DNA of 51,169 nucleotides from positions 1 through 51,169 of the forward strand of contig JBEPYD010000003.1 of assembly GCA_041641575.1 (NCBI GenBank), in the 5' to 3' direction. Position 1 is the first letter of the stretch. Each line of letters starts with the position of its first letter. The position numbers and the translations under genes were made by a program. A model generated the notes under the pieces. That model was not told the DNA's origin. It did not search any database and saw nothing but the letters and a program-made list of their open reading frames with translations. Shown in pieces: positions 3,648 through 32,518 of this stretch. The DNA comes from Bacteroidales bacterium. Its GTDB lineage: Bacteria; Bacteroidota; Bacteroidia; Bacteroidales; JBEPYD01.

Positions 3648-4640
3648 ATGGCAATATTAGCTTTTCAAAAGCCTGACAAAGTGATAATGTTAGATTCAGA
3701 TGAGAATCTGGGTCGCTTTGAATTCAGACCACTAGAACCTGGATACGGTATTACTGTAGGTAATGCCCTCAGAAGAATTCTATTATCATCATTGGAAGGA
3801 TATGCAATAACTACCGTAAAAATTGAAGGTGTTGAACATGAATTCTCTACCATAACAGGCGTTATTGAGGATGTACCGGAGGTAGTACTAAATTTAAAGC
3901 AGGTTCGCTTCAAAAAACTGATCGATGATGTAGAAGATGAAAAAATAAATCTCTCTATTACCGGACAGGATCAACTTAAAGCCGGAGATCTTAACAAATT
4001 TCTAACCGGTTTTCAGGTGTTAAATCCGGAACTGGTAATATGCAACCTCGAATCAGATGTGAAGCTGCAAATGGAGGTAAACATAAACAAAGGTCGTGGA
4101 TTTGTTCCCAGCGAAGAAAATAAGCCCCTGGATGCAGAATTTGGCCTTATTCCTTTGGACGCAACCTTTACGCCGGTAAAAAATGTGAAATTTACGGTAG
4201 AAAATTATCGTGTGGAGCAGAAAACCGACTACGAGAAGCTTATTTTTGAAATCAAAACCGATGGTTCCATCCACCCCAAGGATGCCTTAAAAGAAGCTGC
4301 AAAAATACTTATCTATCACTTCATGTTGTTTTCAGATGAAAAGATTACCCTTGATTCTGACGAGAAATTTTCAAATGAAGAGTTTGATGAAGAAGTATTG
4401 CACATGCGCCAGCTCTTAAAAACCAAACTGGTAGATATGGATTTATCCGTTCGTGCACTAAATTGTTTGAAAGCTGCTGAGGTTGAAACATTGGGCGATT
4501 TGGTTAAATTTAATAAAAACGACCTTCTTAAGTTTAGAAATTTCGGAAAAAAGTCTCTCACGGAGTTGGATGAGCTTTTGGAAAATCTAAACCTGAATTT
4601 TGGAATGGATATCACAAAATATAAATTAGACAAGGAATAA
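3648..4640 (+). CDS. rpoA: DNA-directed RNA polymerase subunit alpha
   Basis: 330 aa. N-terminal domain motif [18 protein letters not shown]-terminal domain with [20 protein letters not shown]. Sits between rpsD and rplQ. Confidence 0.97.
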
Positions 4641-16147: not shown

Positions 16148-16555
16148 ATGGAAATTATTCGATGGATTGATAATTATTCTATTAATATTCCGGAAATTGA
16201 CAACCAGCACAAACGCCTTGTGGCCCTTTTGAACAGTTTATATTCTGCCATGAGTGTGGGAAAGGGAAAAAATATTATGTCCGAAATTATTGATGAACTC
16301 TCTGATTATACCAGCACGCACTTTCGCACAGAAGAAGTTAAAATGCGCATGCTCGATTATCCTGAATTTGTCCAGCATAAAAAAGAGCATGAATTGTTTA
16401 TAGAAAAAGTAAGTGCATTTCGGGCAGATTTTAACAAAGGGAATGCAAAAGTTACCATAGAAGTGGTAAATTTTCTGCGCGATTGGCTACTAAATCATAT
16501 TCAGGAGGTAGATGCCAGACTGGGAAGATATCTTGTAAAAAAAGGTGTAAAATAA
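16148..16555 (+). CDS. Bacteriohemerythrin / hemerythrin-like metal-binding protein
   Basis: 135 aa. W.D.YS..I.EIDNQHKRL, HF..EE, H..EH, WL.NHI..VD. This is the classic His/Glu/Asp di-iron ligand spacing. Confidence 0.88.
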   Translation: MEIIRWIDNYSINIPEIDNQHKRLVALLNSLYSAMSVGKGKNIMSEIIDELSDYTSTHFRTEEVKMRMLDYPEFVQHKKEHELFIEKVSAFRADFNKGNAKVTIEVVNFLRDWLLNHIQEVDARLGRYLVKKGVK

Positions 16556-16558
16556 TGT

Positions 16559-17035
16559 ATGGTAAATGTTGCTAAAATTATTGAGGAACTTGATCTAAAG
16601 CCTCATCCCGAAGGGGGATATTACAGGGAAAATTACAGACATCCTCTTCGCCTGGATTCTGTGAATGGAAACCGTAATCTTGCCACCAGTATTTATTATC
16701 TGCTGCATGATTCTCAGCTATCAAAATTTCACAGGCTTACTTCTGATGAAATCTGGTACCATCATTCAGGGGATTCAGCAATAATTCATTGTTTTTTTCA
16801 GGATTCTGGATACCGAAAAATACGATTGGGAGCGGTGGAAAATAGTGGCTCTTATCAGGTTGTTTTACCTGCAGGAACTATTTTTGGAGCAGAAGTGGAA
16901 AATAACCATGGATATTTCCTTGCCGGATGCATGGTTTCTCCCGGGTTTGATTTTAATGATTTTGAATTCGTAACCCGCGAAGAACTATTAGCTGTTTATC
17001 CTGAAAATAGAAATTTAATTCATAAATTTACCTGA
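16559..17035 (+). CDS. Cupin-fold protein, DUF985 family
   Basis: 158 aa. L.PHPEGGYYRE motif near the N-terminus and SIYYLL..S.FHRL, both typical of DUF985 cupins. Starts 3 nt after the hemerythrin stop. Confidence 0.8.
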   Translation: MVNVAKIIEELDLKPHPEGGYYRENYRHPLRLDSVNGNRNLATSIYYLLHDSQLSKFHRLTSDEIWYHHSGDSAIIHCFFQDSGYRKIRLGAVENSGSYQVVLPAGTIFGAEVENNHGYFLAGCMVSPGFDFNDFEFVTREELLAVYPENRNLIHKFT

Positions 17036-17099
17036 AATACTTAATTCGTTCAGCGTACGTTTTAAGCATGTGTTCACCATTCCTTTTTTACCGAGAACT

Positions 17100-18500
17100 A
17101 TGCAAATGAGAAAAGCTTTACCATACATCAGGCACCTGCTAACTATTTTTACATTTTCCATCCTTCTTTGCCTGCCCCTGTATTCACAAGTCAGCCTTAC
17201 CTCCCCCGACCATACCACGCGTATCCTTTTTGTCTTTGATGCTTCCCAAAGCATGGCCGGCCAATGGGAGAAAGACAGCAAGATAAAGATTGCCCGTGAA
17301 ATTCTTATTCGAATGGTAGACAGTCTTGAGCAGCTCGATGGTATTGAACTTGCTTTGCGCGTGTACGGTCATCAAAGTCCGGTTCCCCCGCAGGATTGCT
17401 CTGATACACGTCTGGAAGTCCCTTTCAGCAAAAGCGCCCCAAGCCAGATCAGGCAAAAACTACACTTCCTCAAACCGCGCGGCACCACACCTATTGCAAA
17501 TTCACTTACGCTATCTGCAAATGATTTCGGACCCTGCGAAAACTGCCGGAATATCATCATCCTTATTACAGATGGAATAGAAGCATGCGATGGTGACCCC
17601 TGTGAGGTTTCTTATGCCCTGCAGAAAAAAGGTATTGTACTGAAGCCTTTTGTTATTGGCATTGGCATGGACGAAGATTTCCGTGATGCCTTTGACTGCA
17701 TAGGAAATTACTACAATGCTGAAAGGGAAGAGAAATTCGAGGAAATTCTAAATGTGGTGATTTCCCAGGCACTCAACTCCACAACCGCCCAGGTAAACCT
17801 TCTGGACGATAACGGATTACCCACAGAAACTAACGTGAACATGATTTTTTATGATCAGTTTTCTGATAAAATAAAGCATAACTTCTACCATACCATAAAT
17901 CACAGGGGAAAGCCTGATACCCTTGTTCTTGATCCATTGGTTACCTACCGTATTGAAGTTCAAACCATACCTAAGGTGACAATTGAAAATGCCAAAGTAG
18001 TACCGGGCAAGCACACCATTTTTGCTGCCGATGTACCACAGGGTACCCTGGTGGTAAAAGTTGGCGATAACCAGTACCGGGGCATGCAGTACATCGTGCG
18101 TAAAGCAGGGGAGATGGAAACCCTGAATATGCAATCAATCAGCCAGTCAGAGAGGTATATTACCGGTAAATACGACCTTGAAATACCCACTATTCCCCGC
18201 TTAAACATCAATGGAATAAACATAAACCAAAGCGAGACAACAACAGTTGAAATTCCCCGTCCAGGACTGGTTACTTTTATCAAGGCCGCAACCGGATTTG
18301 GCAGCCTCTACGTAATGCGGGGCGGAAAAATGGAATGGGTATATAATTTAGATGTAAATTCCCGCACAGAAGCCCTTGTACTTCAACCTGGCAGTTATAA
18401 AGCCGTATTCCGATCCCTTAATGCCCGACAATCTATTTATACCATTACCCGTTCCTTTAAAGTATTACCCGGTGGTGCTATTTCTGTGGAATTTTATTAA
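17100..18500 (+). CDS. Secreted von Willebrand factor A (vWA) domain protein with a ~250-aa beta-rich C-terminal region
   Basis: Signal peptide MQMRKALPYIRHLLTIFTFSILLCLPLYSQ. MIDAS motif ILFVFDASQSMAG, downstream TP and ILITDGIE elements. The ORF track begins at GTG 17070; an ATG at 17100 or 17106 fits the signal peptide better. Confidence 0.8.
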   Translation: MQMRKALPYIRHLLTIFTFSILLCLPLYSQVSLTSPDHTTRILFVFDASQSMAGQWEKDSKIKIAREILIRMVDSLEQLDGIELALRVYGHQSPVPPQDCSDTRLEVPFSKSAPSQIRQKLHFLKPRGTTPIANSLTLSANDFGPCENCRNIIILITDGIEACDGDPCEVSYALQKKGIVLKPFVIGIGMDEDFRDAFDCIGNYYNAEREEKFEEILNVVISQALNSTTAQVNLLDDNGLPTETNVNMIFYDQFSDKIKHNFYHTINHRGKPDTLVLDPLVTYRIEVQTIPKVTIENAKVVPGKHTIFAADVPQGTLVVKVGDNQYRGMQYIVRKAGEMETLNMQSISQSERYITGKYDLEIPTIPRLNINGININQSETTTVEIPRPGLVTFIKAATGFGSLYVMRGGKMEWVYNLDVNSRTEALVLQPGSYKAVFRSLNARQSIYTITRSFKVLPGGAISVEFY

Positions 18501-18623
18501 TCCATTAAACCATTGTTAACTTTTTTCATCTAATCAGATACAGGTAATCTTTCAGGTAACTTATTATAAGAAAAAGCAGTTACCTTTGAAATGGGTTGAA
18601 TAAAATGTAAAGACACAGCTTTT

Positions 18624-19172
18624 ATGCCATCATATACTGATAAAGAGCTCCTGCAATTTATCAAGGACAAAGAAAACAGGAATTTTGGTTTTGACTTGCT
18701 GATAAAGACATACCAGGAAAAACTTTACTGGCATATCCGGCGCATTGTTATAAACCATGCCGATGCAGATGATGTATTACAAAATACTTTATTAAAAGTG
18801 TGGGAGAAGATTGATACATTTCGCGGCGAAAGTGGTCTTTTTACTTGGTTGTACCGCATTGCCACAAATGAAGCCCTCGGATTTTTAAGAAAGAAAAAGA
18901 ACAAATTTCTCTTACCTTTGGTTGACATGGAAGAAAAACTCGGCAAGGAGCTGGAAACAGATCCATGGTTCGACGGTAACGAAATACAGAAAAAATTTCA
19001 AAAAGCATTGCTTTCTTTGCCAGAAAAACAAAGAATAGTGTTTAACATGAAATATTTTGATGAAATGAAGTATGAAGAAATTTCACAGGTTCTTGACACC
19101 TCCGTAGGTGCTTTAAAAGCTTCCTACCATCATGCACAAAAGAAAATAGAAAAATATTTTGATGTGGATTAA
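18624..19172 (+). CDS. ECF-type RNA polymerase sigma-70 family factor
   Basis: 182 aa. Region 2 (DADDVLQNTLLKVWEKIDTFRGES.LFTWLYRIATNEAL) and region 4 HTH (MKYEEISQVLDTSVGALKASYHHAQKKI). Confidence 0.9.
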   Translation: MPSYTDKELLQFIKDKENRNFGFDLLIKTYQEKLYWHIRRIVINHADADDVLQNTLLKVWEKIDTFRGESGLFTWLYRIATNEALGFLRKKKNKFLLPLVDMEEKLGKELETDPWFDGNEIQKKFQKALLSLPEKQRIVFNMKYFDEMKYEEISQVLDTSVGALKASYHHAQKKIEKYFDVD

Positions 19173-19210
19173 ACCTTTCTTGATAATCAGAGTCAAAGTT
19201 TTAGATAAAG

Positions 19211-19669
19211 ATGATTATGGAAAAAAATGAACATGATATATGGAAAAATGAGGGGGAAAATTCACCCTTTAAAGTGCCCGAAAACTACTTTGAGGAACTT
19301 CCATTAAAAATTCGTGAGCAGATAGAAAATAAAAAGAAAATTGCAGAAAATCCTTCTGTATGGAAAGTATTTAAACCACAGCTGAGCCTTGCTGCTTCCT
19401 TCTTATTTTTGGTGCTTTTGGGCTATTTTTCTATTAAGTTAATCACTGATAGCAATGCGCCCACAGGAATAAATCAATCTACTGTTGCCGAAGTACTGGA
19501 AGAACAGCCGGATATGATTGACAATTATGCATTGCTTGAAGCCATGGATGAAGAAGTATTAGAGGCCTTTGATGAAACGGAAGAAATTAACTCTGCATAT
19601 TCCGAAGAAATAATCGACTACCTCATAGATGCAGATATAGATATTACAAGTATTGCGGATGAATTCTAA
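19211..19669 (+). CDS. Single-pass membrane protein, putative anti-sigma factor for the adjacent ECF sigma
   Basis: 152 aa. One TM (LSLAASFLFLVLLGYFSIKLI) and a highly acidic C-terminal region. Lies 38 nt downstream of the ECF sigma. No zinc-binding anti-sigma motif is seen. The function is inferred from position only. Confidence 0.5.
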   Translation: MIMEKNEHDIWKNEGENSPFKVPENYFEELPLKIREQIENKKKIAENPSVWKVFKPQLSLAASFLFLVLLGYFSIKLITDSNAPTGINQSTVAEVLEEQPDMIDNYALLEAMDEEVLEAFDETEEINSAYSEEIIDYLIDADIDITSIADEF

Positions 19670-19732
19670 ATATTTTTAAAACCTGAAAATGCATCTTACT
19701 GAAAAACAAATGTTTAACGAAATCTCAATCTA

Positions 19733-20209
19733 ATGAAAAATTTATATAAAAATATAATATTAATCTCCGGACTGGTCTTTTTTAATACCATTGTATATGG
19801 TCAGGGAAGGGGTTTCGAAGATAAAAGAGAGCTAATAAAAAGTGAAAAAATCGCATTTCTAACGAGAGAAATGGAATTATTGCCTGAAGAAGCACAGGTT
19901 TTCTGGCCTGTGTATAACGATTTTCAAAACCGGGTAGATCGGTTGAACGATGAAAAACGAACACAAAACAGGTATTACATGCAAAATCAGGCAAATTTGT
20001 CATCCAAAGAGGCAGAGGAACTGGGTGACAGATTGATTGTTTTAGAATTGGAAGAAGCTCAATTAAAGGCAGATTTTCATGAAAAGTTAAAAGATATTCT
20101 TCCCCCAGCCAAAATTATAAAGCTCTACCATGCAGAGATGAAATTTAAAAACTACCTGCTCAGGCAATTACGGGGTGGGCGTGGAAAAGGTAATCCACAA
20201 CGAAACTAA
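19733..20209 (+). CDS. Periplasmic alpha-helical protein, Spy/CpxP-like (third gene of the ECF module)
   Basis: 158 aa. Signal peptide, helical E/K/Q-rich body with an LTxxQ-like element (FLTREMELLPEEAQ), and a basic tail. The family call is tentative. Confidence 0.5.
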   Translation: MKNLYKNIILISGLVFFNTIVYGQGRGFEDKRELIKSEKIAFLTREMELLPEEAQVFWPVYNDFQNRVDRLNDEKRTQNRYYMQNQANLSSKEAEELGDRLIVLELEEAQLKADFHEKLKDILPPAKIIKLYHAEMKFKNYLLRQLRGGRGKGNPQRN

Positions 20210-20255
20210 ATTACTTTGCGTACCGCACCATAAAAAGGATATGATTATTTATCGG

Positions 20256-20292
20256 AATGCCGGAAATGTTAACATTTTCGGCATTTTATTTG
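20256..20292 (+). terminator. Rho-independent terminator after the ECF sigma module
   Basis: 30-nt palindrome aatgccggaaatgtt/aacattttcggcatt (20256-20285; one G-U pair), followed by TTATTTG. Confidence 0.75.
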
Positions 20293-20344
20293 CTTATAAG
20301 AATTCACTACTTATTACACAAAAAATTGTGTAGAAAATAATCAT

Positions 20345-22864
20345 ATGTTGAATCCGAAAAAGTTAATTCAGAAAATAGGAAGGAAAGTTGTTTTAGGATT
20401 CGGAGTTTCGTTTATCGTACTGATTTTTATTGGCATTTACTCCTTTCAAAATCTTACCCGCCTAAAAACCAACACCCATGAGCTTGCAAATCCTAATGAG
20501 CTTGTGGTAACCTTGCAGCAGGTTATCTCCGATATTTCACATATTGAACGGGGTGTACTTTTGTATCTAAATACAGATGACCCTGATTATCTTTTTCCAT
20601 ATTATACTTATCCTGATTCGGTTGAACCAAAATTACGGAAGATAGATTCACTCACAGCTTCACTGGATGAGTATGAAACAAGAACTGATTCAATATTATA
20701 CCTGTACAGCCTGAAGAAAGATATTATGACCCTGCTTGTAGAGGTCGATAATAAAAAATTGAACAAGCTTTTTTACGATACCATAAAAAAAGAATTCCGG
20801 AAGCGAAAGAAAAAAAGGATAGCAAATCAAAATGAAAAAATTAACGAGCAGGAAAATTTATATAACAGAATTATAAAGCTTTTTAGTGAGAAAAAGAGCA
20901 GTTTTGAAGAGTTTACAGAATTAAATGTAACAGAAGAAACGGAACTCACACTGGACGATGTTATTGACATGATCGTAGGGTTCCCGGATTCCATGGCACA
21001 AGATGATCTGCGTTCTGTGGATTTTGTTTCCCGCCTTTTTGAAAAAGATAATGCCATTTCGCATGAAATAAGGACAATTGCCAACACTTTGCTTTTCGAG
21101 GAAATTATTAACCGTGAAAAACATAAAGAAAGAGCAGGCAGCATAGCACGCAAGTCGATCACAACCCTCAGCATTATAATTGGGTTAAATCTAATTCTTA
21201 TCTCCGTATTGTTGTGGCTGATTTTTAAAGATATATTTAAAAGCAGAAATTATCAGACAGAGCTTATAAAGGCACGGCAGGAAGCTGAACAGGCATCAGT
21301 ATTGAAAAGCAATTTTCTGGCAACCATGAGCCATGAAATCCGTACACCTTTAACCACCATTATAGGCTTTAATGATTTGCTGGCAAAATCTGATTTAAAC
21401 CCGGAGCAGAGAAATCATATAGCAGTGGTAGAATCGGCTTCAAACCATTTGTTAAAAGTAATAGATAAAATCCTTACCCTTTCCAAAATACAGGCAGGGC
21501 AGATTAACATAGAGAATAAGGCATTTAACCTGTCTGAATTGATGCATACCATTCATCATTCACTGAAATTTAATGCACAAGCAAAAGGTATTAACTTTTT
21601 TATTCATTGTCCGGACGTGAGAGAATTGTGGGTTTCAGGTGATTATATTCACGCCAGGCAAATACTTACAAATGTTATCAGCAATGCCATAAAATTTACT
21701 TCAAAAGGCTCTGTGGGTGTATTTTGTAGATTTAAAGAACCCGTACCTGGTAAAGTGTTAATGGAATTTCTCATTCGCGATAGTGGCATGGGAATTCCTG
21801 ATGAGAAAATTAACCAGATTTTTGCAGAATTTAATCAGATTGACATTACTGCCACACGCAAATACGGAGGTACAGGCCTGGGACTTACCATCAGCCAAAA
21901 GCTGGCAGAACTGATGGGAGGCAGCATTAAAGTAAAAAGTATCCCTGAAAAAGGCTCTACATTTATCATTACCCTTCCGTTTGAGAAAATTTCTGAAGAG
22001 GAATATCTTAAAGAAAAGAAACCTAAAGCCCCGGGTAATATGCAAATGCTAAAGCATATTACCGCCCTGGTTGTGGATGATGATGAAATAAATGCTACTT
22101 TAAGCCAGAAGGTTTTGCAAAATTTTGATATTGAAACGGATATGGTGCTCTTGCCCTTAGCTGCAATGGAGAAATTTAAGCAAAAGCATTTTGATGTGGT
22201 ACTGCTGGACATTCACATGCCTGAAATGAGTGGTTATGATGTTGCCAGTGCCATGCGGCAATGGGAAATAGATAATAACCTGGAGCCAGCAGTAATAATT
22301 GCCTTTACTGCAGATGTAATGCAAGATGACGTAAACAAATTTACCCGTTTTGGTATTTCCGGGTATATTGAGAAGCCCTTCAAAGAAAAAGATATTTACA
22401 ACATGCTATGTTATCATTTGGGGATTGACAACGAAATTCAGGATACTGCATGGGCACCGATAGGCATTGACCCTTCTAATGTTGAAGAAGAGGAAGGGGA
22501 GAAACTTGATGAAACGTATGACCTTGAGGAACTTAAACACGCCACCGGCGGAGACCAGGGTTTCTACTTAAAAATGCTGGGAACATTTATCGAAAATGCC
22601 GAAACCGGGAACAAAGAACTGCAGCATGCCATTGAAAATAAAGAATGGAATATGGCAGGAGAACAGGCACATAAATTAAAAACCATGCACCGGCACTTGC
22701 ACATGCATAATCTGGCCCGCTTTTATTTTCAGATTGAAACGCTTGCGCTCAAGGATAAGGAATACACAGAAATTAAAAACATCTTAGAAAAGATAGAACC
22801 TGTATCAAAGAAAATACTGGCCAGCCTAAAAGAAGAATTAGACAAAGCCAGTATAAAAGATTAA
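20345..22864 (+). CDS. Hybrid sensor histidine kinase / response regulator with C-terminal HPt domain
   Basis: 839 aa. Two TM segments flank an extracytoplasmic sensor region. H-box MSHEIRTPL. ATPase motifs DSGMGIP and GGTGLGL. Receiver domain (VVDDDEIN...LLDIHMPEMSGY). HPt-like AHKLKTMHRH. Confidence 0.9.
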   Translation: MLNPKKLIQKIGRKVVLGFGVSFIVLIFIGIYSFQNLTRLKTNTHELANPNELVVTLQQVISDISHIERGVLLYLNTDDPDYLFPYYTYPDSVEPKLRKIDSLTASLDEYETRTDSILYLYSLKKDIMTLLVEVDNKKLNKLFYDTIKKEFRKRKKKRIANQNEKINEQENLYNRIIKLFSEKKSSFEEFTELNVTEETELTLDDVIDMIVGFPDSMAQDDLRSVDFVSRLFEKDNAISHEIRTIANTLLFEEIINREKHKERAGSIARKSITTLSIIIGLNLILISVLLWLIFKDIFKSRNYQTELIKARQEAEQASVLKSNFLATMSHEIRTPLTTIIGFNDLLAKSDLNPEQRNHIAVVESASNHLLKVIDKILTLSKIQAGQINIENKAFNLSELMHTIHHSLKFNAQAKGINFFIHCPDVRELWVSGDYIHARQILTNVISNAIKFTSKGSVGVFCRFKEPVPGKVLMEFLIRDSGMGIPDEKINQIFAEFNQIDITATRKYGGTGLGLTISQKLAELMGGSIKVKSIPEKGSTFIITLPFEKISEEEYLKEKKPKAPGNMQMLKHITALVVDDDEINATLSQKVLQNFDIETDMVLLPLAAMEKFKQKHFDVVLLDIHMPEMSGYDVASAMRQWEIDNNLEPAVIIAFTADVMQDDVNKFTRFGISGYIEKPFKEKDIYNMLCYHLGIDNEIQDTAWAPIGIDPSNVEEEEGEKLDETYDLEELKHATGGDQGFYLKMLGTFIENAETGNKELQHAIENKEWNMAGEQAHKLKTMHRHLHMHNLARFYFQIETLALKDKEYTEIKNILEKIEPVSKKILASLKEELDKASIKD

Positions 22865-22875
22865 GTAAACCAGAC

Positions 22876-23661
22876 TTATTTTATTACAATTACCGCATTC
22901 GGGTCAATTACCCTAAAGGTGAATGATTCCGTAATAAATAATACAATTTCATTTATATTATGGGCCTCATAACCAATGGAGAAATCCTGCCCCAGCGTTA
23001 ATTCAAAATCTCCTCCCCTTTCACTGATAAGGAAGTTCTCCTGAATGTTTGTATTTAGAATAACCTTCCCGGATAATAAATTTTCCAATTGTTTCAAAAT
23101 CGGATATCCACGCATATTTCCTGAAATTCTTTTATAGGTTTCGCTGTTTACCACAAGCGTGTAAGGACCTTCTACACCGGCATTTTTAAAGTTTATAATA
23201 CCTTCGCTAACAGTAGCAGCAAATTCTTCTGCTACATCAGTAAATGCAAGTTCAGGATGCTCTGTTGCTTTCTTTAAACCATTGATATGGGCTATACCAT
23301 AATAGATGGCATTCTCCTCAAATTTCGCAATTTTGCGGGCAGCTTCTTCAAGTGGTTCAAGTTCAGGGTCCTTGCTGCCGCGTTCAATATTGTCTAATTC
23401 CCATGTATTGAGTTTAAACTGTATTCTGGGTTCAACTAATGGGGAAACCTGGTGTATTCCATATTTTACGTCACCTTGCTGTTTATCAGGTAAACTTAAT
23501 TTGCCCATAGGTACAGAGGCAAAACTCAATCCATGAGGGCCTTTAACATCTACAAACTGGCGTCCTGTAAGTGTGGGTTTAATAATATCTATTGCAGTGT
23601 CGTTTATTTCTTCCCAGGCTTTTGCCGTTATGGGAGCTAAACTTCTTTTGAAAATATCCAT
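22876..23661 (-). CDS. Family 1 encapsulin nanocompartment shell protein (HK97 fold; linocin M18-like)
   Basis: 261 aa. Alignable by eye along its length to the Thermotoga maritima encapsulin as I recall it: F(L/K)RS(F/L)AP(L/I)T.K.W.EI, FVDV.GP.G, WELDN(L/I)ERG, GPYTLV(I/V)N, SERGGDF(K/E)L.LGQD(L/F)SIGYE, LFITE(T/S)FTF.V. Confidence 0.93.
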   Translation of the reverse strand: MDIFKRSLAPITAKAWEEINDTAIDIIKPTLTGRQFVDVKGPHGLSFASVPMGKLSLPDKQQGDVKYGIHQVSPLVEPRIQFKLNTWELDNIERGSKDPELEPLEEAARKIAKFEENAIYYGIAHINGLKKATEHPELAFTDVAEEFAATVSEGIINFKNAGVEGPYTLVVNSETYKRISGNMRGYPILKQLENLLSGKVILNTNIQENFLISERGGDFELTLGQDFSIGYEAHNINEIVLFITESFTFRVIDPNAVIVIK

Positions 23662-23697
23662 ATTGTACTAATCTTTTTTATGATTTAAAAAATGTAT

Positions 23698-24045
23698 TTA
23701 CTTGCCAATGCCAAGGCTACCATTATCTTTGGATGCATCGTCATCATCCTCTTCATGTTCCTCTTCGGCATGAGCAATATCGCCTTCAGTAAACAAATAA
23801 TTCCGTAACTCTTCATCCCAACCTGGCATATTACGTCGTAACCATTCAAGAGTCATGCAGGCATGCTCTATTTCCTCATCGCGGTTATGCGCCAGGATAG
23901 ATTTTAATGCTTCATCACTTGAAGCATCTACACGTTGCTGGTACCAGTCAACAGCTTCAATCTCTTCTTTGAGACTGTTTAAAGCCCTTACATAGTTACG
24001 TGTCTCAGCACTGAGTTCATTAATTGGTTCATGATAATCTGACAT
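23698..24045 (-). CDS. Encapsulated ferritin (EncFtn) cargo protein with C-terminal encapsulin targeting peptide
   Basis: 115 aa. EEIEAVDWYQQRVDAS...ILAHNRDEEIEHACMTLEWLRR closely matches the Rhodospirillum rubrum EncFtn core, including the E..EExxH ferroxidase ligands. An acidic linker (EEEHEEDDDD) precedes the terminal GSLGIGK targeting motif. Lies 36 nt upstream of the shell gene. Confidence 0.92.
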   Translation of the reverse strand: MSDYHEPINELSAETRNYVRALNSLKEEIEAVDWYQQRVDASSDEALKSILAHNRDEEIEHACMTLEWLRRNMPGWDEELRNYLFTEGDIAHAEEEHEEDDDDASKDNGSLGIGK

Positions 24046-24072
24046 AGAAATAAATTTTTGTTTTGAATTATG

Positions 24073-24993
24073 TTATTTAAATAGGTTGATTAACCAACTT
24101 TTTTTAATCTCTTCAGACGTTTCTGTTATTTCAACAATCCCTTTATTTAAATTGTTTAATGTAACGCTGATGCTGTCAGCGAAGGTGCTATCTGCTAACA
24201 ATTTGTGAACCGTTCCATCACCACTGGCAGCCATTTCTGCTATGGTATTAAGTTTTGCAGATACCGATTCAAGCTTAACAGTTATATCATTGATGTTATC
24301 TGTGGTTTTTACGATTTCTGCCGTTATGGTAGTGTCATTTACGAGCCGCCCCAGATCACCTTCACCCGTATTTATTTTTTCTGTAATCCGGTTAAAATCA
24401 TTCATGGCAACATTGGCATCGCGTATTACACTTCGCAACTCTTCTGCAATAATGGTATCGTTAAATAATGTGCCAAACATTCCGTCGCCCCTGTTTATCT
24501 TTTTAGTAATCTGGTATAATCCTTCAGACAAATCAGAGATATTTTTGGCTGCATTTTCCACCTCATTAAATATATCATTTAACTCAACCGATTGTGTGGT
24601 GGGGAGCACCTCCCCGGGCTTTATAGCTTCGGAAATGTTCTTCCCCGGCGAAATCAGTACCAGCTTATTACCCATTAATCCTTCGGTTCCAATGCTTGCC
24701 TGGGAGGTTTCTTTGATAAACTGTTGCAGATCGCTGTCAATGGAAAGCTCTACTTTTACCGTGGTATCTGTAAGGATTTCAATATCGGATATAGTTCCAA
24801 TGTTTATGCCTGAAAACCGGACATTATTCCCAACCTGCAAACCTTTTACATCAGAAAAAACAGCATAAACCTTCATGGTACTGCCAAAAAGGTTACGTTC
24901 CTTGCCCAGGAAATATACTACAAAGGCAAAAAACACGATGCCAAGTGTGATAAAAAGGCCAAGTTTAATATTGTGTACTTTTCTTTGTTTCAT
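24073..24993 (-). CDS. MlaD/MCE-family substrate-binding protein of an Mla-like ABC transporter
   Basis: 306 aa. N-terminal TM anchor and MCE domain (V.GLQVGN.VRFSGI.IG.I). The helical C-terminus carries three G.G.(F/L)G.L.ND-type repeats. Confidence 0.85.
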   Translation of the reverse strand: MKQRKVHNIKLGLFITLGIVFFAFVVYFLGKERNLFGSTMKVYAVFSDVKGLQVGNNVRFSGINIGTISDIEILTDTTVKVELSIDSDLQQFIKETSQASIGTEGLMGNKLVLISPGKNISEAIKPGEVLPTTQSVELNDIFNEVENAAKNISDLSEGLYQITKKINRGDGMFGTLFNDTIIAEELRSVIRDANVAMNDFNRITEKINTGEGDLGRLVNDTTITAEIVKTTDNINDITVKLESVSAKLNTIAEMAASGDGTVHKLLADSTFADSISVTLNNLNKGIVEITETSEEIKKSWLINLFK

Positions 24994-25164
24994 ATGGTTA
25001 AATTCTTTAAGATATATTTATGAGTTCTTGTATTCATACTATCGCCTAAATCGACTGCAGAAATACAAAGCAAACTCTTCTTCATTATAAATGTTCTTTT
25101 TCGGTTATTATCTTCATGAGTATAAGGTTTTATATATTTTATTTTATGATGTTCTGATAGTATT

Positions 25165-25932
25165 CTATGTAAAGTAAGCCCTTATTTCTGCATCATCTGA
25201 ATTACTTAGTTCGTCGTATGAGCCTTGTGCCGAAATAACACCATCACGGATAATCATGATATGGTTTGCCGTCATTCTTGCACACTTCATGTCATGTGTA
25301 ATGGTGATGGAAGTTGTATCATACTTCTCTTTAATGTCCAGCATCAGCTCACTGATCTCCTGGCCGGTTACAGGATCAAGTCCGGTAGTAGGTTCATCAT
25401 ACAATATAATGTCAGGTTTCAAAATAAGTGTTCGTGCCAGCCCCACCCGTTTCTTCATCCCACCCGATAATTCCGAGGGTACTTTATCAATCGACTTTTC
25501 AAGGCCAACACTTTTGAGTACATCCACTACCATTGCCTCCACTTCATCAGAATTTTTTGAAAAAAGGGTTCGCCTTACCGGGAAGGCCAGGTTTTCACGC
25601 ACCGTCATCGAATCGTAAAGTGCACCACCCTGAAACAGGTAACCGATGCGCTTGCGCAAAGTATTAATTTCATCTTCTTCAAGTGTTGAGACCTCTTCAC
25701 CCAGTACAAACGCTCTGCCCGATGTTATGGAATACAGGCCAACAATGCACTTTATCAACACAGATTTACCAATACCTGATTTTCCAAGCACCACAAGATT
25801 CTGGCTCTTTTTAACTTTTAAATTGATGTCTTTAAGCACGACATTTGATCCAAAAGCCTTTTTAAGGTGATCTACTACAATAAGATCATCACCATCTTCA
25901 AATTCCTTATTTAAAAACTGATCTATATCCAC
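25165..25932 (-). CDS. ABC transporter ATP-binding protein (MlaF-like)
   Basis: 255 aa. Walker A GKSGIGKS, signature LSGGMKKR, Walker B ILYDEPTTGLD, H-loop ITHD. Confidence 0.93.
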   Translation of the reverse strand: MDIDQFLNKEFEDGDDLIVVDHLKKAFGSNVVLKDINLKVKKSQNLVVLGKSGIGKSVLIKCIVGLYSITSGRAFVLGEEVSTLEEDEINTLRKRIGYLFQGGALYDSMTVRENLAFPVRRTLFSKNSDEVEAMVVDVLKSVGLEKSIDKVPSELSGGMKKRVGLARTLILKPDIILYDEPTTGLDPVTGQEISELMLDIKEKYDTTSITITHDMKCARMTANHIMIIRDGVISAQGSYDELSNSDDAEIRAYFT

Positions 25933-25936
25933 TATT

Positions 25937-26767
25937 TTAAAATATTACACCAATTAAACTGGTTATTTGCACAGCAAGTAAATCTATAATAAAAATTGCC
26001 AGAGATGAGGCAACTACTGCAGAGTTTGCAGACATTCCCACCCCTTCTGTTCCTGAATTTGAATAATAGCCTTTAAAACACCCGATAATACCCACGGCAA
26101 AGCCAAAGAAGAACGTTTTAATGGTTGCAGGTATAATATCCCTGAAGGATAAGGCATCAAATGCCTGATAAAAAAACAGCTTCAGCGAAACATCATCATT
26201 AATGTTAACTGCCAGATAAGATCCATAAAGGGCCAGTGCATCAGCAAAAAACACCAGTATTGGAAGCATCAGAGTGGTGGAAATAACGCGTGTAACCACA
26301 ATAAACTTCATTGGGTTAGTGCCTGAAACCTCCATGGCATCAATCTGCTCAGTTACCCGCATGGATCCTAATTCTGCACCTATGCTGCTACCAACCTTGC
26401 CTGCAAATATTAAAGCGGTTATCACAGGCCCTATTTCCATTATAATGGAAACAGCCACCATACCAGGCAACCACGATTCCGCACCAAATTCTGCAAGTAC
26501 CGGCCTGGACTGCAGGGTCAAAACCATACCCATGATGAACCCTGTAATGGCCACCAGCCCCAGCGAACGGAAACCCACAATGTAGGCCTGGCGCAAAAGC
26601 TCTTTGTTCTCGAAAGGCATACGTCCAAAATTCCGAAAAAAGGATCCTGTAAAACGCGTAATTTCGGCAACCTCAATCAGAAATTCCGTAACCCAATCGG
26701 GTATGGAAAGCATGGTTCTGTCGAACCAGCCAAATTCTTTATTATTATTTTCTTTTTCTTTGCTCAT
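25937..26767 (-). CDS. MlaE-family ABC transporter permease
   Basis: Multi-TM protein with MlaE-like segments (GAE.GSMRVTEQIDA(M/L)E..G). I chose the ATG at 26767; an in-frame GTG at 26794 is the ORF-track start. Its stop is 4 nt from the ATPase start. Confidence 0.88.
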   Translation of the reverse strand: MSKEKENNNKEFGWFDRTMLSIPDWVTEFLIEVAEITRFTGSFFRNFGRMPFENKELLRQAYIVGFRSLGLVAITGFIMGMVLTLQSRPVLAEFGAESWLPGMVAVSIIMEIGPVITALIFAGKVGSSIGAELGSMRVTEQIDAMEVSGTNPMKFIVVTRVISTTLMLPILVFFADALALYGSYLAVNINDDVSLKLFFYQAFDALSFRDIIPATIKTFFFGFAVGIIGCFKGYYSNSGTEGVGMSANSAVVASSLAIFIIDLLAVQITSLIGVIF

Positions 26768-26802
26768 GTTAAATGTGGGGAAATTAATTCCCACTTTGTG
26801 TA

Positions 26803-27882
26803 TTATGTTGCTTCTATACCTGTTTTATTTTCCATTTCCACTCTGGTTCTGGGCAATGCATCCTGGTGATTCTTCTGTAAATAATCAATAAGCTTTTCAC
26901 GCACATGAACCCTCAGATCCCATGCTGTAGGACTGTCGGGAGCACTCATGAGCGCACGCAATTCCATTGATTTTTCAGTTGCATTGGTTACCTGCAGTAC
27001 ATTCACTTTTTTATCCCATAAGGGAGTGGCATTTAATATTTTAGTAAGTTCATTTCTAATTGCGTCAACCTTTGTTGTATAGTCTGTATATATATAAACT
27101 GTGCCAAGAATATCTGCCGACACACGGGTCCAGTTTTCAAATGGTTTTTCTATAAAATATGTAATGGGTACAATTAACCTTCTTTTGTCCCATATTCTTA
27201 TCACTACATAAGTAAGTGCAATTTCTTCTATCCATCCCCACTCATCTTCTACAATTACAACATCATCGAGCCGGATGGGTTGGGTTATGGCAATCTGGAA
27301 ACCGGCAAGTATGGTGGCCAGGCTTTTTTGTGCAGCAAAACCAATGATGATGCCCGCTATGCCCGCAGAAGCAAGTAAATTCACACCTACCTGACGTATT
27401 TTTTCAAATGTCATCAATGCACTGGAAAGCGCGATTACAATGATTACAAAAATTAAGATTCGCCTGAATACCCTCAACTGCGTAGTTACCTTTCTGGCGC
27501 GTAAGTTGTCTTTTGCTTCAATGTCATAATTGCTGATAAGCATTCCCTGAATTACCCCGAGCAAATTTATCATCACCCAGGCAAGGCTAAAAATGAAGAA
27601 AAGAATAATGGCCTGATTAATGTGACCTAACACAGGTTCTTTAAATTCTGTGGCCGGTAGCAGGAAACCAAGTGCTATGGAGATAAACAGGAACAGCGTA
27701 GGCTTCTTTTCCTTCCGAATCAGATGCGCATTTGTGCCATCATCATGCCTTAGAAATATCCTCCGCATAAGAAAAACCAGAATGGTGTGGATAAGCACAG
27801 CAATTATAACCCCTGCACCTAAAATTGCAAGAGAAGACCAGGGATGATCAAAATCAAAATTCTCATTTATAAGCTCTGCCAT
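26803..27882 (-). CDS. Mechanosensitive ion channel protein, MscS family
   Basis: 359 aa. N-terminal TM helices and a pore-lining helix (AGIAGIIIGFAAQ..L....GFQI), followed by the beta domain (I.L.D.V...)..G.IEEI.L. Confidence 0.88.
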   Translation of the reverse strand: MAELINENFDFDHPWSSLAILGAGVIIAVLIHTILVFLMRRIFLRHDDGTNAHLIRKEKKPTLFLFISIALGFLLPATEFKEPVLGHINQAIILFFIFSLAWVMINLLGVIQGMLISNYDIEAKDNLRARKVTTQLRVFRRILIFVIIVIALSSALMTFEKIRQVGVNLLASAGIAGIIIGFAAQKSLATILAGFQIAITQPIRLDDVVIVEDEWGWIEEIALTYVVIRIWDKRRLIVPITYFIEKPFENWTRVSADILGTVYIYTDYTTKVDAIRNELTKILNATPLWDKKVNVLQVTNATEKSMELRALMSAPDSPTAWDLRVHVREKLIDYLQKNHQDALPRTRVEMENKTGIEAT

Positions 27883-27898
27883 GCATTGAATCTTTAAA

Positions 27899-28771
27899 TC
27901 AGGTTGATGATTTTTTCTTTAAAAAAGATTTTTCATGAAAAACAAGCACGGGTAATTTTGTGTTCAACACCAACTCTTTAGTAGAACTGCTTGAAAATAG
28001 CTCCTTCCAGAATCCATGATTCTCTTTCAGGATACCAATTAGATCGGCCTTAAGCTCTGTAGCCACTTGTTCAATTGTATCTACAATATCATCTCCTTTT
28101 CGCATTTGCAGATTAATGTTCGTGTAATTGCATTTTTCCTGTACCATTTCTTCAAAACCCTTCTCACTTAATTTGTTCTTGAAACTTTTATCATTGCTGA
28201 TGTGCAGGGCAGTAATCTTAGAATTAAAAATTCTTGCCAAATCAGAAAGTCTTTGCAAGGATCCGATATCAGCTTCATTATAATTTGTTGCGTAAACGAT
28301 TCTTTGCAGTTCAGAATAAGCTGAAGAAGGAGGAACTATAAATACGGGACATCGTGCATCCTCTATAATGGTTTCGTTTCGGTCGCTGATGAGCCGGTCG
28401 AGAAAACTTTTCTCTGTTCTGCCGGTAAGTAAAATCAGATCATATTCATCACCATTTGAGAGTTCTATTATTCTATCGGCAAAAATTCCTGTTTCCAACC
28501 GGGTATCCAGTGCCACATCTTCCCCAAATTCTTTTTTTATTTTTGGTACAAATTCTTTAAACTGTGTTTCAGCCACTTCCTTAAGCTGCAAAAGATCGGG
28601 CACATACGGGGCTACACCAGTGGTTTCATGGTAATCAGTTGTGTACCTGCTCAAATCAACAACATACACCAGTGTAACAGCCTTATTCATAGACTGGCCA
28701 AGATGAATACCATACTTTACCGTATTCACGCTCTTTTCACTAAAGTCGGTTGGAATAAGTATTTTTTTCAT
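27899..28771 (-). CDS. Tandem-domain universal stress protein (UspA family)
   Basis: 290 aa. Two Usp-like halves, each starting (K)ILIPTDFS / IVYATNY and ending with a ...PV(F/L)(I/V).. strand plus a DLI..G region. Confidence 0.85.
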   Translation of the reverse strand: MKKILIPTDFSEKSVNTVKYGIHLGQSMNKAVTLVYVVDLSRYTTDYHETTGVAPYVPDLLQLKEVAETQFKEFVPKIKKEFGEDVALDTRLETGIFADRIIELSNGDEYDLILLTGRTEKSFLDRLISDRNETIIEDARCPVFIVPPSSAYSELQRIVYATNYNEADIGSLQRLSDLARIFNSKITALHISNDKSFKNKLSEKGFEEMVQEKCNYTNINLQMRKGDDIVDTIEQVATELKADLIGILKENHGFWKELFSSSSTKELVLNTKLPVLVFHEKSFLKKKSST

Positions 28772-30290: not shown

Positions 30291-31403
30291 ATGCACCTAA
30301 ACATAAGCCTCTCGAAAACAGTAAATATCCTACTGATAATTACCTTTATTTTTGCCTTGTTATATTTTGGCCGGCCGATCCTTATTCCCCTTACATTTAG
30401 TCTTATTATTTCAATGCTGCTGTATCCGGTATGTAACTTCCTTGAGAAATATAATATCCCGCGCATACCAGCCATTTTGTTTACATTCTTCCTGGTGGGG
30501 CTTGTTATATCCGGTTTATTTTACCTGTTAAGCAGTCAGGTTATTACCATGTTTAGCGAAATAAAAGATTTTTCGCAGGTGATGAATGACCTGCTAAATA
30601 AAATTTTGCTTTTTATTAATTCAAGAATATTACCCGGCGACCTCCGAATACAGGAAATCTACCAGCAGGAAAGAGAAAATTTATTACAATCATCATCCAA
30701 TATTATTAGCAAAACTATTTCCTCATCCACATCTTTCCTGGCAATTATTGTTTTTATAATTGTGTATACTTTTCTATTTCTGCTTTACCGCACTGCTTTT
30801 AAAGAATTTATTCTCACCAATATAATTAAAAAGAACAGCGCTTATGGAAAAGAGCTGGTATTTAGCATTCAAAAAGTAGCACAGAATTATTTTTATGGAT
30901 TGTTTATGGTCATTATTTTGATTGGCACCTTAAATGGACTTGGACTCTGGATTATAGGCATAGATTACCCTTTCCTTTTTGGATATCTTGCAGCCATTCT
31001 TACCGTTATTCCGTATATCGGAACCACGCTGGGCGGATTAATTCCAACCTTTTACGCCCTTATAAATTATGATAGCCTCTGGATCCCCATAGCCGTGCTG
31101 GCAGTGTTTTTTACCATCCAAACCATAGAAGGAAATATCCTGACACCGAAAATAGTAGGAGAACGGGTCAGTTTAAACCCGCTGTTTGCACTTATTGCTT
31201 TGCTCCTGGGAGGCATCCTGTGGGGTGTTGCCGGATTGATTCTATTTATTCCCTTAATGGCGATAATTAAAGTGGTATTTGACCATATTGATTCTTTAAA
31301 ACCTTATGGTTTATTGCTAAGTAGTGAGTTTGCCAATAACAAGGAAAGCATCTTCTCTCAACTGGTCCGCCGGCTGAAAGAAAAACGCAAAAAGAAAAAT
31401 TAA
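30291..31403 (+). CDS. AI-2E family transporter (PerM/YhhT-like permease)
   Basis: 370 aa multi-TM protein. Conserved C-terminal block IPYIG...G..P......Q.IEGNILTPKIVG..(V/L).LNP. Confidence 0.88.
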   Translation: MHLNISLSKTVNILLIITFIFALLYFGRPILIPLTFSLIISMLLYPVCNFLEKYNIPRIPAILFTFFLVGLVISGLFYLLSSQVITMFSEIKDFSQVMNDLLNKILLFINSRILPGDLRIQEIYQQERENLLQSSSNIISKTISSSTSFLAIIVFIIVYTFLFLLYRTAFKEFILTNIIKKNSAYGKELVFSIQKVAQNYFYGLFMVIILIGTLNGLGLWIIGIDYPFLFGYLAAILTVIPYIGTTLGGLIPTFYALINYDSLWIPIAVLAVFFTIQTIEGNILTPKIVGERVSLNPLFALIALLLGGILWGVAGLILFIPLMAIIKVVFDHIDSLKPYGLLLSSEFANNKESIFSQLVRRLKEKRKKKN

Positions 31404-32518
31404 TTTCTCAGTTTATTTTTCATTCTGTTAAAATAGGATTTTAAATTTCGGCCGCTGATACTGTGCTTTTGCGTTCCGCGTGTCCCCAGCAAAAAAGCAT
31501 AAGGCTGTAGGCTGTCGAAATTCTTGAAAATCCGCTTGAGCATGGCAAGAAAGGGCACAACTACAAGCATACCCGGAATTCCCCAAATCATGGCGCCTAC
31601 AATAAGGCTGAAAATAATGAAAAAGGGGTTTATTTTTAAACTGCTCCCTACAATGTTCGGTGTAAGTATGTTGTTTTCAATAAACTGAATAATGATAAAC
31701 AATATAAGTACACGCACAGCAAGCAAAGGTGTTTCGCCTATAAGAATAGCAAATAATAATGGAATTGCGCCTCCCATCAGTGTACCGAAATAAGGAATAA
31801 AATTAATCAGCGCACTAATTACCCCAAAAATTATGGGGTATTTCATTCCCACCAGGTAAAGCCCGAAAGAATTCAGCAGGCAAAGTATTGAAACCACAAT
31901 AACAACACCACCCATATAACGGGTAACTACCGTAGAGATATCACGAAGGATTTTAATGGTTACACGTTCCTTGTCGTCGGGAACAACTTTTAATATAAAG
32001 TATGCAAATTTTGTACGGTAGTATAAAAACAGAAAAATATATACCGGCATTAGAAAAATGCGTAACAACGTACCGGTTGTAGCAGAGAAAATGGCATTAA
32101 AATTCTGAGGGATATTTTCAAAAAAACCTGTCACCCACTGCTTTACATACTGGTCAAGAAAATCGTCCTGGAACCCAAAAACATTCTCAAGACTGTGTTG
32201 GTAGGTATCGATGTTTGATATGGCCTGCCGCTTCAGTTCAGGAAAATCAGAAAATAATGTGGTAAACTGGTCGTAGATAAACAATCCCCCGCCTGCAATT
32301 ACAATAAGCGCAAAGAGAATGCTTATAATAATTGAGAGGATACGTGGAAGCCCTTTCATCTCAAGGAAATTGGCAACCGGAAACAACAGGTATGCCAGCA
32401 ACACCCCAAAGGCTATAGGATAAAGAAATTCCCGTGCTGCTATTATGCCATAAATAAACAGAATAATTGCCAGAAGGAAGTAGGTGAAGCGCATCCCAAT
32501 GGGATATTTTTTTTGCAT
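31400..32518 (-). CDS. AI-2E family transporter (second, divergent paralog)
   Basis: 372 aa. Same architecture and motif block (IPYFG..MGGAIP...QFIENNILTPNIVGSSLKINP). Confidence 0.88.
   Translation of the reverse strand: MQKKYPIGMRFTYFLLAIILFIYGIIAAREFLYPIAFGVLLAYLLFPVANFLEMKGLPRILSIIISILFALIVIAGGGLFIYDQFTTLFSDFPELKRQAISNIDTYQHSLENVFGFQDDFLDQYVKQWVTGFFENIPQNFNAIFSATTGTLLRIFLMPVYIFLFLYYRTKFAYFILKVVPDDKERVTIKILRDISTVVTRYMGGVVIVVSILCLLNSFGLYLVGMKYPIIFGVISALINFIPYFGTLMGGAIPLLFAILIGETPLLAVRVLILFIIIQFIENNILTPNIVGSSLKINPFFIIFSLIVGAMIWGIPGMLVVVPFLAMLKRIFKNFDSLQPYAFLLGTRGTQKHSISGRNLKSYFNRMKNKLRN

Follow-up and report, generated by a model that had tools for sequence, protein, structure and literature searches.

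Does the two-gene locus at positions 22876 to 24045 of a 51,169-nucleotide (nt) stretch of Bacteroidales DNA (contig JBEPYD010000003.1 of assembly GCA_041641575.1, hereafter the window) encode an encapsulin compartment together with its own iron-oxidizing cargo, and in which respects does it depart from the compartments already described? Encapsulin:EncFtn compartments rank with the larger iron stores built of protein and serve well as engineering scaffolds. Members of the class from Thermotoga, Rhodospirillum, Haliangium and Myxococcus have been characterized both structurally and biochemically. We conclude, with a probability of about 0.93, that the locus is a two-gene family-1 encapsulin operon in which the EncFtn cargo comes first and the shell second, and no evidence contradicts this assignment. 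It is an uncharacterized pair from a Bacteroidales-like mat lineage. An open reading frame (ORF) listing of positions 20000..27000 returned two adjacent frames exactly at the bounds that a first-pass annotation had given them, both on the minus strand. The gene encFtn (23698..24045, 115 amino acids (aa), ATG start, stop codon included; the protein begins MSDYHEP) lies directly upstream of enc (22876..23661, 261 aa, ATG start, stop codon included), and a spacer of 36 nt (23662..23697, minus strand) separates them. The order of cargo and then shell is kept in 73 of 85 related loci, usually with a gap of 4-30 nt. GC content is 38%, compared to 40% for the whole window. Two plus-strand ORFs that overlap the operon (76 aa and 54 aa) had no family support and were dismissed as antisense artefacts.

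The length of the spacer varies among the relatives. While it is 36 nt long in the window and 4-30 nt long in most other loci, it reaches 152-190 nt in the closest relatives, which share at least 91% shell identity (L001:5811-6000 and L086:5849-6000). Folded as RNA, these longer spacers were no more stable than shuffled sequences (z = 0.41 and 0.03), and the longer spacer is therefore not a structured element.

The identity of the cargo follows from profile searches that the first-pass annotation had proposed. The 115-aa protein matched the Pfam family EncFtn-like (PF22277) over profile positions 2-85 of 85 (E 2.6e-43, 146.1 bits, cutoff 27) and the NCBIfam model TIGR04535, "encapsulin-associated ferritin-like protein," with 162.9 bits (cutoff 125). 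Both scores are above the curated cutoffs and establish the protein as an EncFtn. The EncB_fam model scored only 73.8 bits, below its cutoff of 90, and hence the cargo is not of the Myxococcus xanthus EncB subtype. A sequence search against the Protein Data Bank (PDB) recovered the EncFtn of Rhodospirillum rubrum (E 8.5e-34; 63% identity, from 59 identities over 93 residues aligned without gaps), followed by the EncFtn of Haliangium ochraceum (E 1.3e-31) and, at a much weaker score, EncC (E 1.3e-5). The ungapped alignment to entry 5da5 sets the residue numbers of the window protein four below those of R. rubrum. Together with a residue check and the predicted helices, it delimits a ferroxidase domain at residues 4-87 (23785..24036, minus strand). 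Residues 27-35 (EEIEAVDWY) and 54-62 (NRDEEIEHA) do indeed carry the two motifs quoted in the first-pass annotation. All ferroxidase-centre residues are kept (E28, E58, H61 and Y35, corresponding to Glu32, Glu62, His65 and Tyr39 of R. rubrum), as are those of the entry site (E27, E30 and W34, corresponding to Glu31, Glu34 and Trp38). Mutagenesis of Glu32, Glu62 and His65, and the roles of the metal-site residues in R. rubrum EncFtn, have been summarized previously (PMC11202242).

A single-sequence structure model of EncFtn contains long helices at residues 13-41 and 45-72 and a short helix at residues 79-87, and the core has a predicted local distance difference test score (pLDDT) above 90. 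The protein had been described as having a four-helix core. The helical EncFtn fold is borne out by the model, but four helices per monomer are not, since the modeled chain is a two-helix hairpin. In EncFtn proteins the four-helix bundle and its di-iron site arise across a dimer, and five dimers make up a decamer of D5 symmetry (PMC11202242). Taken together with the two long helices of our model, this dimer-interface bundle identifies the monomer as a half-ferritin hairpin.

Behind the ferroxidase domain the confidence of the model drops, with a pLDDT below 50 at residues 87-98. This low confidence, together with the composition, marks residues 88-108 (23722..23784, minus strand; GDIAHAEEEHEEDDDDASKDN) as a predicted disordered linker. 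The acidic character ascribed to it earlier is evident, as 11 of its 21 residues are D or E and 2 are H. Ferritin-like protein (FLP) cargoes that carry a targeting peptide have disordered C-terminal regions of 10-40 aa (PMC11202242). In many EncFtn proteins from Bacteroidales the linker is rich in His and Asp, as in GAHGHDHDHDDDHG (loci L007, L008, L009, L012, L013 and L014, where these C-terminal regions sit just upstream of position 4001 or 1078). Such linkers may act as a metal-binding tether. The window linker, by contrast, is acidic and has only the 2 His. A further variation was seen in locus L062, which encodes a second EncFtn-like ORF (L062:2990-3577, 195 aa, E 2.6e-27) with a Lys-rich C-terminus, approximately 420 nt upstream of the shell gene and in addition to the usual EncFtn of 114 aa.

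The 261-aa product of enc was assigned in the same way. It matched the Pfam family Linocin_M18 (PF04454) over its full length (positions 1-253 of 253; E 8.2e-79, 264.8 bits, cutoff 24.3) and the NCBIfam equivalog NF041155, encap_f1, over model positions 2-261 of 261 (259.1 bits, cutoff 100). Thus, the second pair of suggested profile searches also passed the curated cutoffs and supports the proposed family-1 encapsulin identity. Among solved structures the shell aligned over its full length with the Thermotoga maritima encapsulin (3dkt; E 2.5e-62, approximately 41% identity), and the H. ochraceum (E 1e-55) and R. rubrum (E 2.6e-47) shells were also recovered. Mycobacterial, Klebsiella, R. rubrum and other shells were found at E 1e-50 to 1e-43, while M. 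xanthus EncA, the Pyrococcus furiosus particle and other larger types matched only at E 1e-9 to 1e-3 (approximately 1e-6 for the two named). We take the 23 highest-ranking solved structures (E 2.5e-62 to 6e-43) to be shells of triangulation number T=1, and M. xanthus EncA and the P. furiosus particle to be T=3 types.

An AlphaFold model of the shell protein, calculated from an alignment of 28 sequences, had a mean pLDDT of 84.3 and a predicted template modeling (TM) score of 0.80. Compared with the PDB using Foldseek, the model gave TM scores of 0.88-0.91 and E values around 1e-30 to T=1 shells, and TM scores of 0.75-0.82 to M. xanthus-type and related shells. The predicted protomer hence superposes on solved encapsulins, in agreement with the HK97 fold (A-domain, P-domain and E-loop) for which a structure prediction had been recommended. 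The N-terminal 42 residues align to T. maritima without a gap, and so do residues 1-125 as a whole, a stretch that should include the E-loop. Within it, a helix is predicted at residues 13-30. Family 1 is set apart by an N-terminal helix where phage capsids and family 2 have an N-arm (PMC8346489). By analogy with its solved relatives, the shell most likely assembles as a T=1 particle of 60 subunits and about 24 nm.

A feature that sets a subset of encapsulins apart is a tryptophan that binds flavin. In the T. maritima encapsulin, flavin mononucleotide stacks on Trp87 (W90 in a tagged construct), and this Trp occurs in about 10% of Linocin_M18 sequences and in 35% of FLP-loaded shells, almost all of them from anaerobes (PMC8086157, PMC8610991). 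In the window shell the aligned residue is also a tryptophan, W87, which does not vary across 28 Bacteroidales-type shells, nor do the pore-loop residues Y186 and P187. The aligned W87 places the shell in the putative flavoprotein subclass, and by homology it is probably a flavoprotein like the members of this subclass from anaerobes.

The most distinctive part of the locus is the C-terminal targeting peptide of EncFtn. The H. ochraceum shell was solved with the peptide 117-GSLGIGSLR-125 bound; the core conserved in the family is GxLGIxxL, and its last Leu is bound in both the H. ochraceum and the T. maritima shell structures (PMC8791618). The T. maritima loading peptide is GGSENTGGDLGIRKL, which contains GGDLGIRKL. 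The window protein ends in GSLGIGK (residues 109-115; 23701..23721, minus strand), the first seven positions of the eight-residue core. The stretch GSLGIG is identical to the shell-bound H. ochraceum peptide and LxIx is satisfied, but a stop codon takes the eighth position, where Leu or Ile is expected. The peptide had been called canonical in the first-pass annotation. This holds for the core GSLGIGK and not for the full GxLGIxxL motif, since the third hydrophobic anchor is gone.

To place this ending, we surveyed the EncFtn genes beside related shells in 88 loci, which encode 73 distinct proteins. Sixty-one of the 73 contain LxIxx[LIVMF], and the usual Bacteroidales tail is SLGIGKIKK. An LxIx core that lacks the third anchor was found in eight, and three of these eight are the proteins of the window, of L001 and of L086-88. 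All three end in GSLGIGK, the shortest tail of the surveyed set, although their linkers have diverged and their stop codons differ (TAA and TAG). The same ending in spite of divergent linkers and different stop codons marks the short tail as a fixed trait of the lineage and not a sequencing artefact. The window has 322 stop-to-stop ORFs of 50 aa or more, and a regular-expression scan of them all revealed no other tail resembling a targeting peptide. A hemerythrin encoded at 16148..16555 belongs to a known cargo class and was considered as a second cargo; it was rejected, since it has no such tail.

Two observations on relatives concern the same end of the protein and the shell that would receive it. 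In three loci from metagenome-assembled genomes (MAGs) of Bacteroidales/Prolixibacteraceae (L050:1441-2547, L063:3694-4801 and L081:3695-4819), EncFtn has 96 aa, lacks both linker and targeting peptide and ends ...KIEND or ...KIEDE, and its gene lies 12-16 nt upstream of a gene for a family-1 shell of 266-272 aa. Short FLPs without a tail were formerly held to be non-encapsulated (PMC11202242). Their position next to a shell gene suggests that they may be loaded in another way. On the shell side, the window protein and its 91% identical relative have seven conservative substitutions in common (L4F, R54K, A96S, W176Y, L188I, V212I and Y242F), each at a site where conservation reaches 85% or more across 26 other Bacteroidales-type shells. 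L4F sits in the N-terminal segment of the shell.

Searches for shell homologues returned 2086 sequences at E <= 1e-20. The nearest (P0001, 91% identical) comes from a MAG contig in GCA_963991455.1, the next (58%) from a Bacteroidales MAG, and many Bacteroidales, Marinilabiliaceae and Thermophagus shells follow at 48-56% identity. The public protein collection already contains the exact window proteins, on an NCBI contig of 51169 bp; an exact-sequence query with the window shell gene gave no match. Within the same 90%-identity cluster there is a sister sequence from a JGI sample; its contigs carry the name ElkS_mat, which we read as a mat sample from Elkhorn Slough. NCBI already applies the name "family 1 encapsulin nanocompartment shell protein" to several homologues from Bacteroidales, and a search of the literature found no experimentally characterized family-1 encapsulin from Bacteroidota. 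Flp-type cargoes have been reported in 23 bacterial phyla (PMC8346489). The system type is thus described, and homologues in the same order are annotated automatically, in line with the earlier expectation that any novelty would lie in lineage and context. The only departures from the known type are the peptide that is one residue short, the Trp87 subclass and a lineage-specific synteny with Usp, MscS and Mla genes.

Comparison with individual systems makes these departures clearer. The T. maritima compartment (3DKT, 7KQ5, 7MU1) consists of the same gene pair and is the best solved relative of the shell, and the flavin Trp87 is common to both. Its peptide DLGIRKL aligns with SLGIGK of the window, which ends one residue earlier and without the last Leu. 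Its pore loop GHYPLEK stands against RGYPILK in the window, where the loop is one residue shorter, and T. maritima is a hyperthermophile while the window host is a mesophilic Bacteroidales-like mat bacterium. The H. ochraceum system (7ODW, 7OE2, 5N5F) has a shell with a TM score of 0.91 to our model and shares GSLGIG and the pore Tyr. However, it belongs to a different phylum, its peptide continues with -SLR where that of the window ends with -K, and its shell is not known to have the flavin Trp. In R. rubrum (Rru_A0973/A0974; 5DA5, 9RY4) the ferroxidase-centre and entry-site residues are identical to those of the window and the shell is of the T=1 type. The window linker is shorter and more acidic than that of R. 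rubrum, and the R. rubrum tail runs ...GDGSLGIG and then continues, so that the window tail is the shorter one. Operons of Bacteroidales and Marinilabiliaceae (for example L004 of Thermophagus xiamenensis) have the same two-gene order and 48-58% shell identity. Unlike the window, they have the tail SLGIGKIKK with the third anchor, linkers that are often His/Asp-rich, and other neighbors. The EncA/B/C system of M. xanthus (T=3) and the IMEF system of Firmicutes (T=4) also join an HK97-fold shell to a ferritin-like, iron-mineralizing cargo, as predicted for the window. These are distant matches with larger shells, different targeting motifs (LTVGSLRR) and, for IMEF, a four-helix cargo.

By homology to these systems, the pair would work as follows. 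The 261-aa HK97-fold protein would self-assemble into an icosahedral T=1 shell of 60 subunits, and a hydrophobic pocket between the shell's P-domain and its N-terminal helix would capture the GSLGIGK peptides of EncFtn while the shell closes. EncFtn would pair into dimers that form a four-helix bundle around a di-iron centre (E28, E58, H61 and Y35), and five dimers would form a ring-shaped decamer. Fe2+ would enter through the shell pores and be oxidized at the centres in the dimer interfaces, and the ferric mineral would accumulate inside the shell, since EncFtn rings alone are unable to hold mineral (PMC11202242, PMC8346489). The compartment would in this way store iron and keep Fe2+ apart from peroxide.

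The window is a segment of a Bacteroidota chromosome that encodes SecY, enolase, citrate synthase and the type IX secretion protein SprA (2491 aa). From the coordinates alone, a cluster of ribosomal protein genes and RpoA is expected to follow SecY. Upstream of the operon and on the same minus strand lie genes for Usp (27899..28771), MscS (26803..27882), MlaE (25937..26794), MlaF (25165..25932) and MlaD (24073..24993), with successive gaps of 16, 8, 4, 171 and, between mlaD and encFtn, 27 nt. A co-transcription of encFtn with mlaD is possible. The arrangement from Usp to encFtn is kept in L001, in L086-88 and, at 58% shell identity, in L002/L006, where the mlaD-encFtn gap of L002 is 172 nt. 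MlaEFD also precedes the operon in L025 (49% identity). Among the 85 related loci, the Mla linkage is confined to three lineages, and no other related locus examined has it. We considered a functional link to MlaEFD and rejected it because of the small number of lineages and the variable gaps, and the linkage is treated here as synteny. A different neighborhood was found in Thermophagus xiamenensis (L004:3814-9641), with catalase on one side of the operon and a nitroreductase, an AhpC/1-Cys peroxiredoxin and a ZIP metal transporter on the other. These oxidative-stress and metal genes fit a role in iron and oxidative stress. Overall, the genomic context hints at stress defense.

On its other side, enc converges with a gene for a hybrid histidine kinase of 839 aa (20345..22864) that has a CHASE3/4HB sensor, HisKA, HATPase, receiver and Hpt domains. 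The two stop codons are 11 nt apart, with no terminator-like hairpin in between, and L001, L002 and L086-88 share this convergent pairing, so that the transcripts may overlap. We did not find a convincing terminator downstream of the shell gene. The strict Bacteroidetes -7 motif (TAnnTTTG) had no match upstream of encFtn or enc, and sigma-70-like sites were not in excess (27, compared to 22 +/- 4.4 in shuffled sequences). No Rfam family and no tRNA were found in the window.

Two further gene groups in the window were recorded. The plus strand at 16148-20209 encodes the hemerythrin (135 aa), a Cupin_5 protein, a VWA-domain protein, an ECF-type sigma factor, together with two small proteins that match no family. 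Synteny with L001 and L086-88 extends over the Cupin_5, VWA and sigma-factor genes and both small ORFs as far as the ends of these loci, which lie inside the Cupin_5 gene. At 30291-32518, two paralogues of the AI-2E transporter family (370 and 372 aa) are encoded on opposite strands and tail to tail, with 3' ends that overlap by 4 nt (31400-31403).

Several points weigh against the view that the locus encodes a working, loaded iron store. The T number, the assembly, the decameric state and the activity are all drawn from homology to solved systems, and no promoter or terminator could be assigned to the operon. The flavin of the T. maritima shell had no measurable effect on iron uptake or release under the conditions tested, and no function has been assigned to it in that organism (PMC8086157). 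Furthermore, the targeting peptide is without the third hydrophobic anchor of GxLGIxxL. Since this anchor is missing, each peptide may bind less tightly, and the cargo occupancy may hence fall below that of the model systems. In the extreme, the short tail would load EncFtn poorly or not at all, leaving most of it outside the shell or at low occupancy, and the shell would be partly empty or filled with a cargo whose gene lies elsewhere in the genome. The predominance of LxIxx[LIVMF] among the relatives (61 of 73), the extreme shortness of the tail in the window lineage and the place of the last Leu in the conserved core, where it is bound in two solved shells, all speak for such a failure. So do the tail-less EncFtn proteins encoded beside shell genes, which indicate that the tail is evolutionarily labile in Bacteroidota. 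We nevertheless regard a loading failure as unlikely. The first six residues of the tail are identical to the bound H. ochraceum peptide, the fixation of the short tail in three distinct sequences argues for a working end that is maintained, and no other ORF of the window offers a tail of this kind. Moreover, each decamer would carry ten tails, and the resulting avidity may compensate for the short peptide.

A different question is what the compartment would be for. The same machine could serve mainly in the detoxification of Fe2+, O2 and H2O2 under oxidative or envelope stress instead of long-term iron storage, presumably in an anaerobic or microaerophilic mat bacterium. We consider this a serious candidate, though at somewhat less than even odds. 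It draws on the position of the operon 27 nt behind mlaD in the Usp-MscS-MlaEFD series, a synteny kept down to 58% shell identity, and on the catalase, AhpC and nitroreductase genes around the Thermophagus locus. The near restriction of the W87 subclass to anaerobes (PMC8086157) points in the same direction, and Flp encapsulins have been proposed to act in both iron homeostasis and stress resistance (PMC8346489). On the other hand, storage and detoxification are not mutually exclusive, and the Mla linkage, found in 3 lineages of 85 loci and with the wide gap in L002, may reflect shared ancestry. Concerning the particle itself, a T=3 or T=4 architecture instead of T=1 appears very unlikely. The T number is not certain from sequence, and for M. 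xanthus EncA particles of T=1 as well as T=3 are known (PMC11202242). However, the 261-aa length and the gapless alignment to T. maritima over residues 1-125 agree with T=1, as do the best 23 solved relatives, which we take to be T=1, and the larger types are far more distant in E value and TM score. That the 261-aa protein is the major capsid protein of a remnant HK97-type prophage is an extremely improbable reading. The HK97 fold is common to encapsulins and phage capsids, and two homologues carry a precomputed match to PF05065, a family of phage capsids. Yet neither EncFtn nor the shell matches any PHROG family, the sole phage-related Pfam match in the window is a sub-threshold Phage_holin_3_6 (25.4 bits, cutoff 28.4), and no other phage gene was found in the window, where the neighbors are chromosomal (SecY, enolase, Mla and SprA). 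The predicted N-terminal helix of the family-1 type, the NCBIfam equivalog score, the adjoining dedicated cargo gene with its targeting peptide and the GC content close to that of the window likewise contradict a phage origin, and we rejected it.

The family-1 encapsulin operon with its EncFtn cargo remains the preferred reading, and it can be extended to a more specific proposal for the lineage comprising the window, L001 and L086-88, which comes from mat metagenomes. Here, a minimal seven-residue loading peptide with matching changes at otherwise conserved positions of the shell (such as L4F) and read-through from Usp-MscS-MlaEFD would yield a flavin-binding and iron-detoxifying shell, induced by envelope or oxidative stress, with tunable, low-affinity loading. 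We regard this combination as doubtful. If it were true, the loading rule and the regulation would differ slightly from the known ones, and the system would not be of a new kind.

The locus neither opens nor settles a long-standing question. Its seven-residue loading tag, a minimal form that occurs in nature, is relevant to the share of GxLGIxxL that loading needs, and a further Trp87 shell from a probable anaerobe offers a setting in which the role of the shell-bound flavin could be tested.

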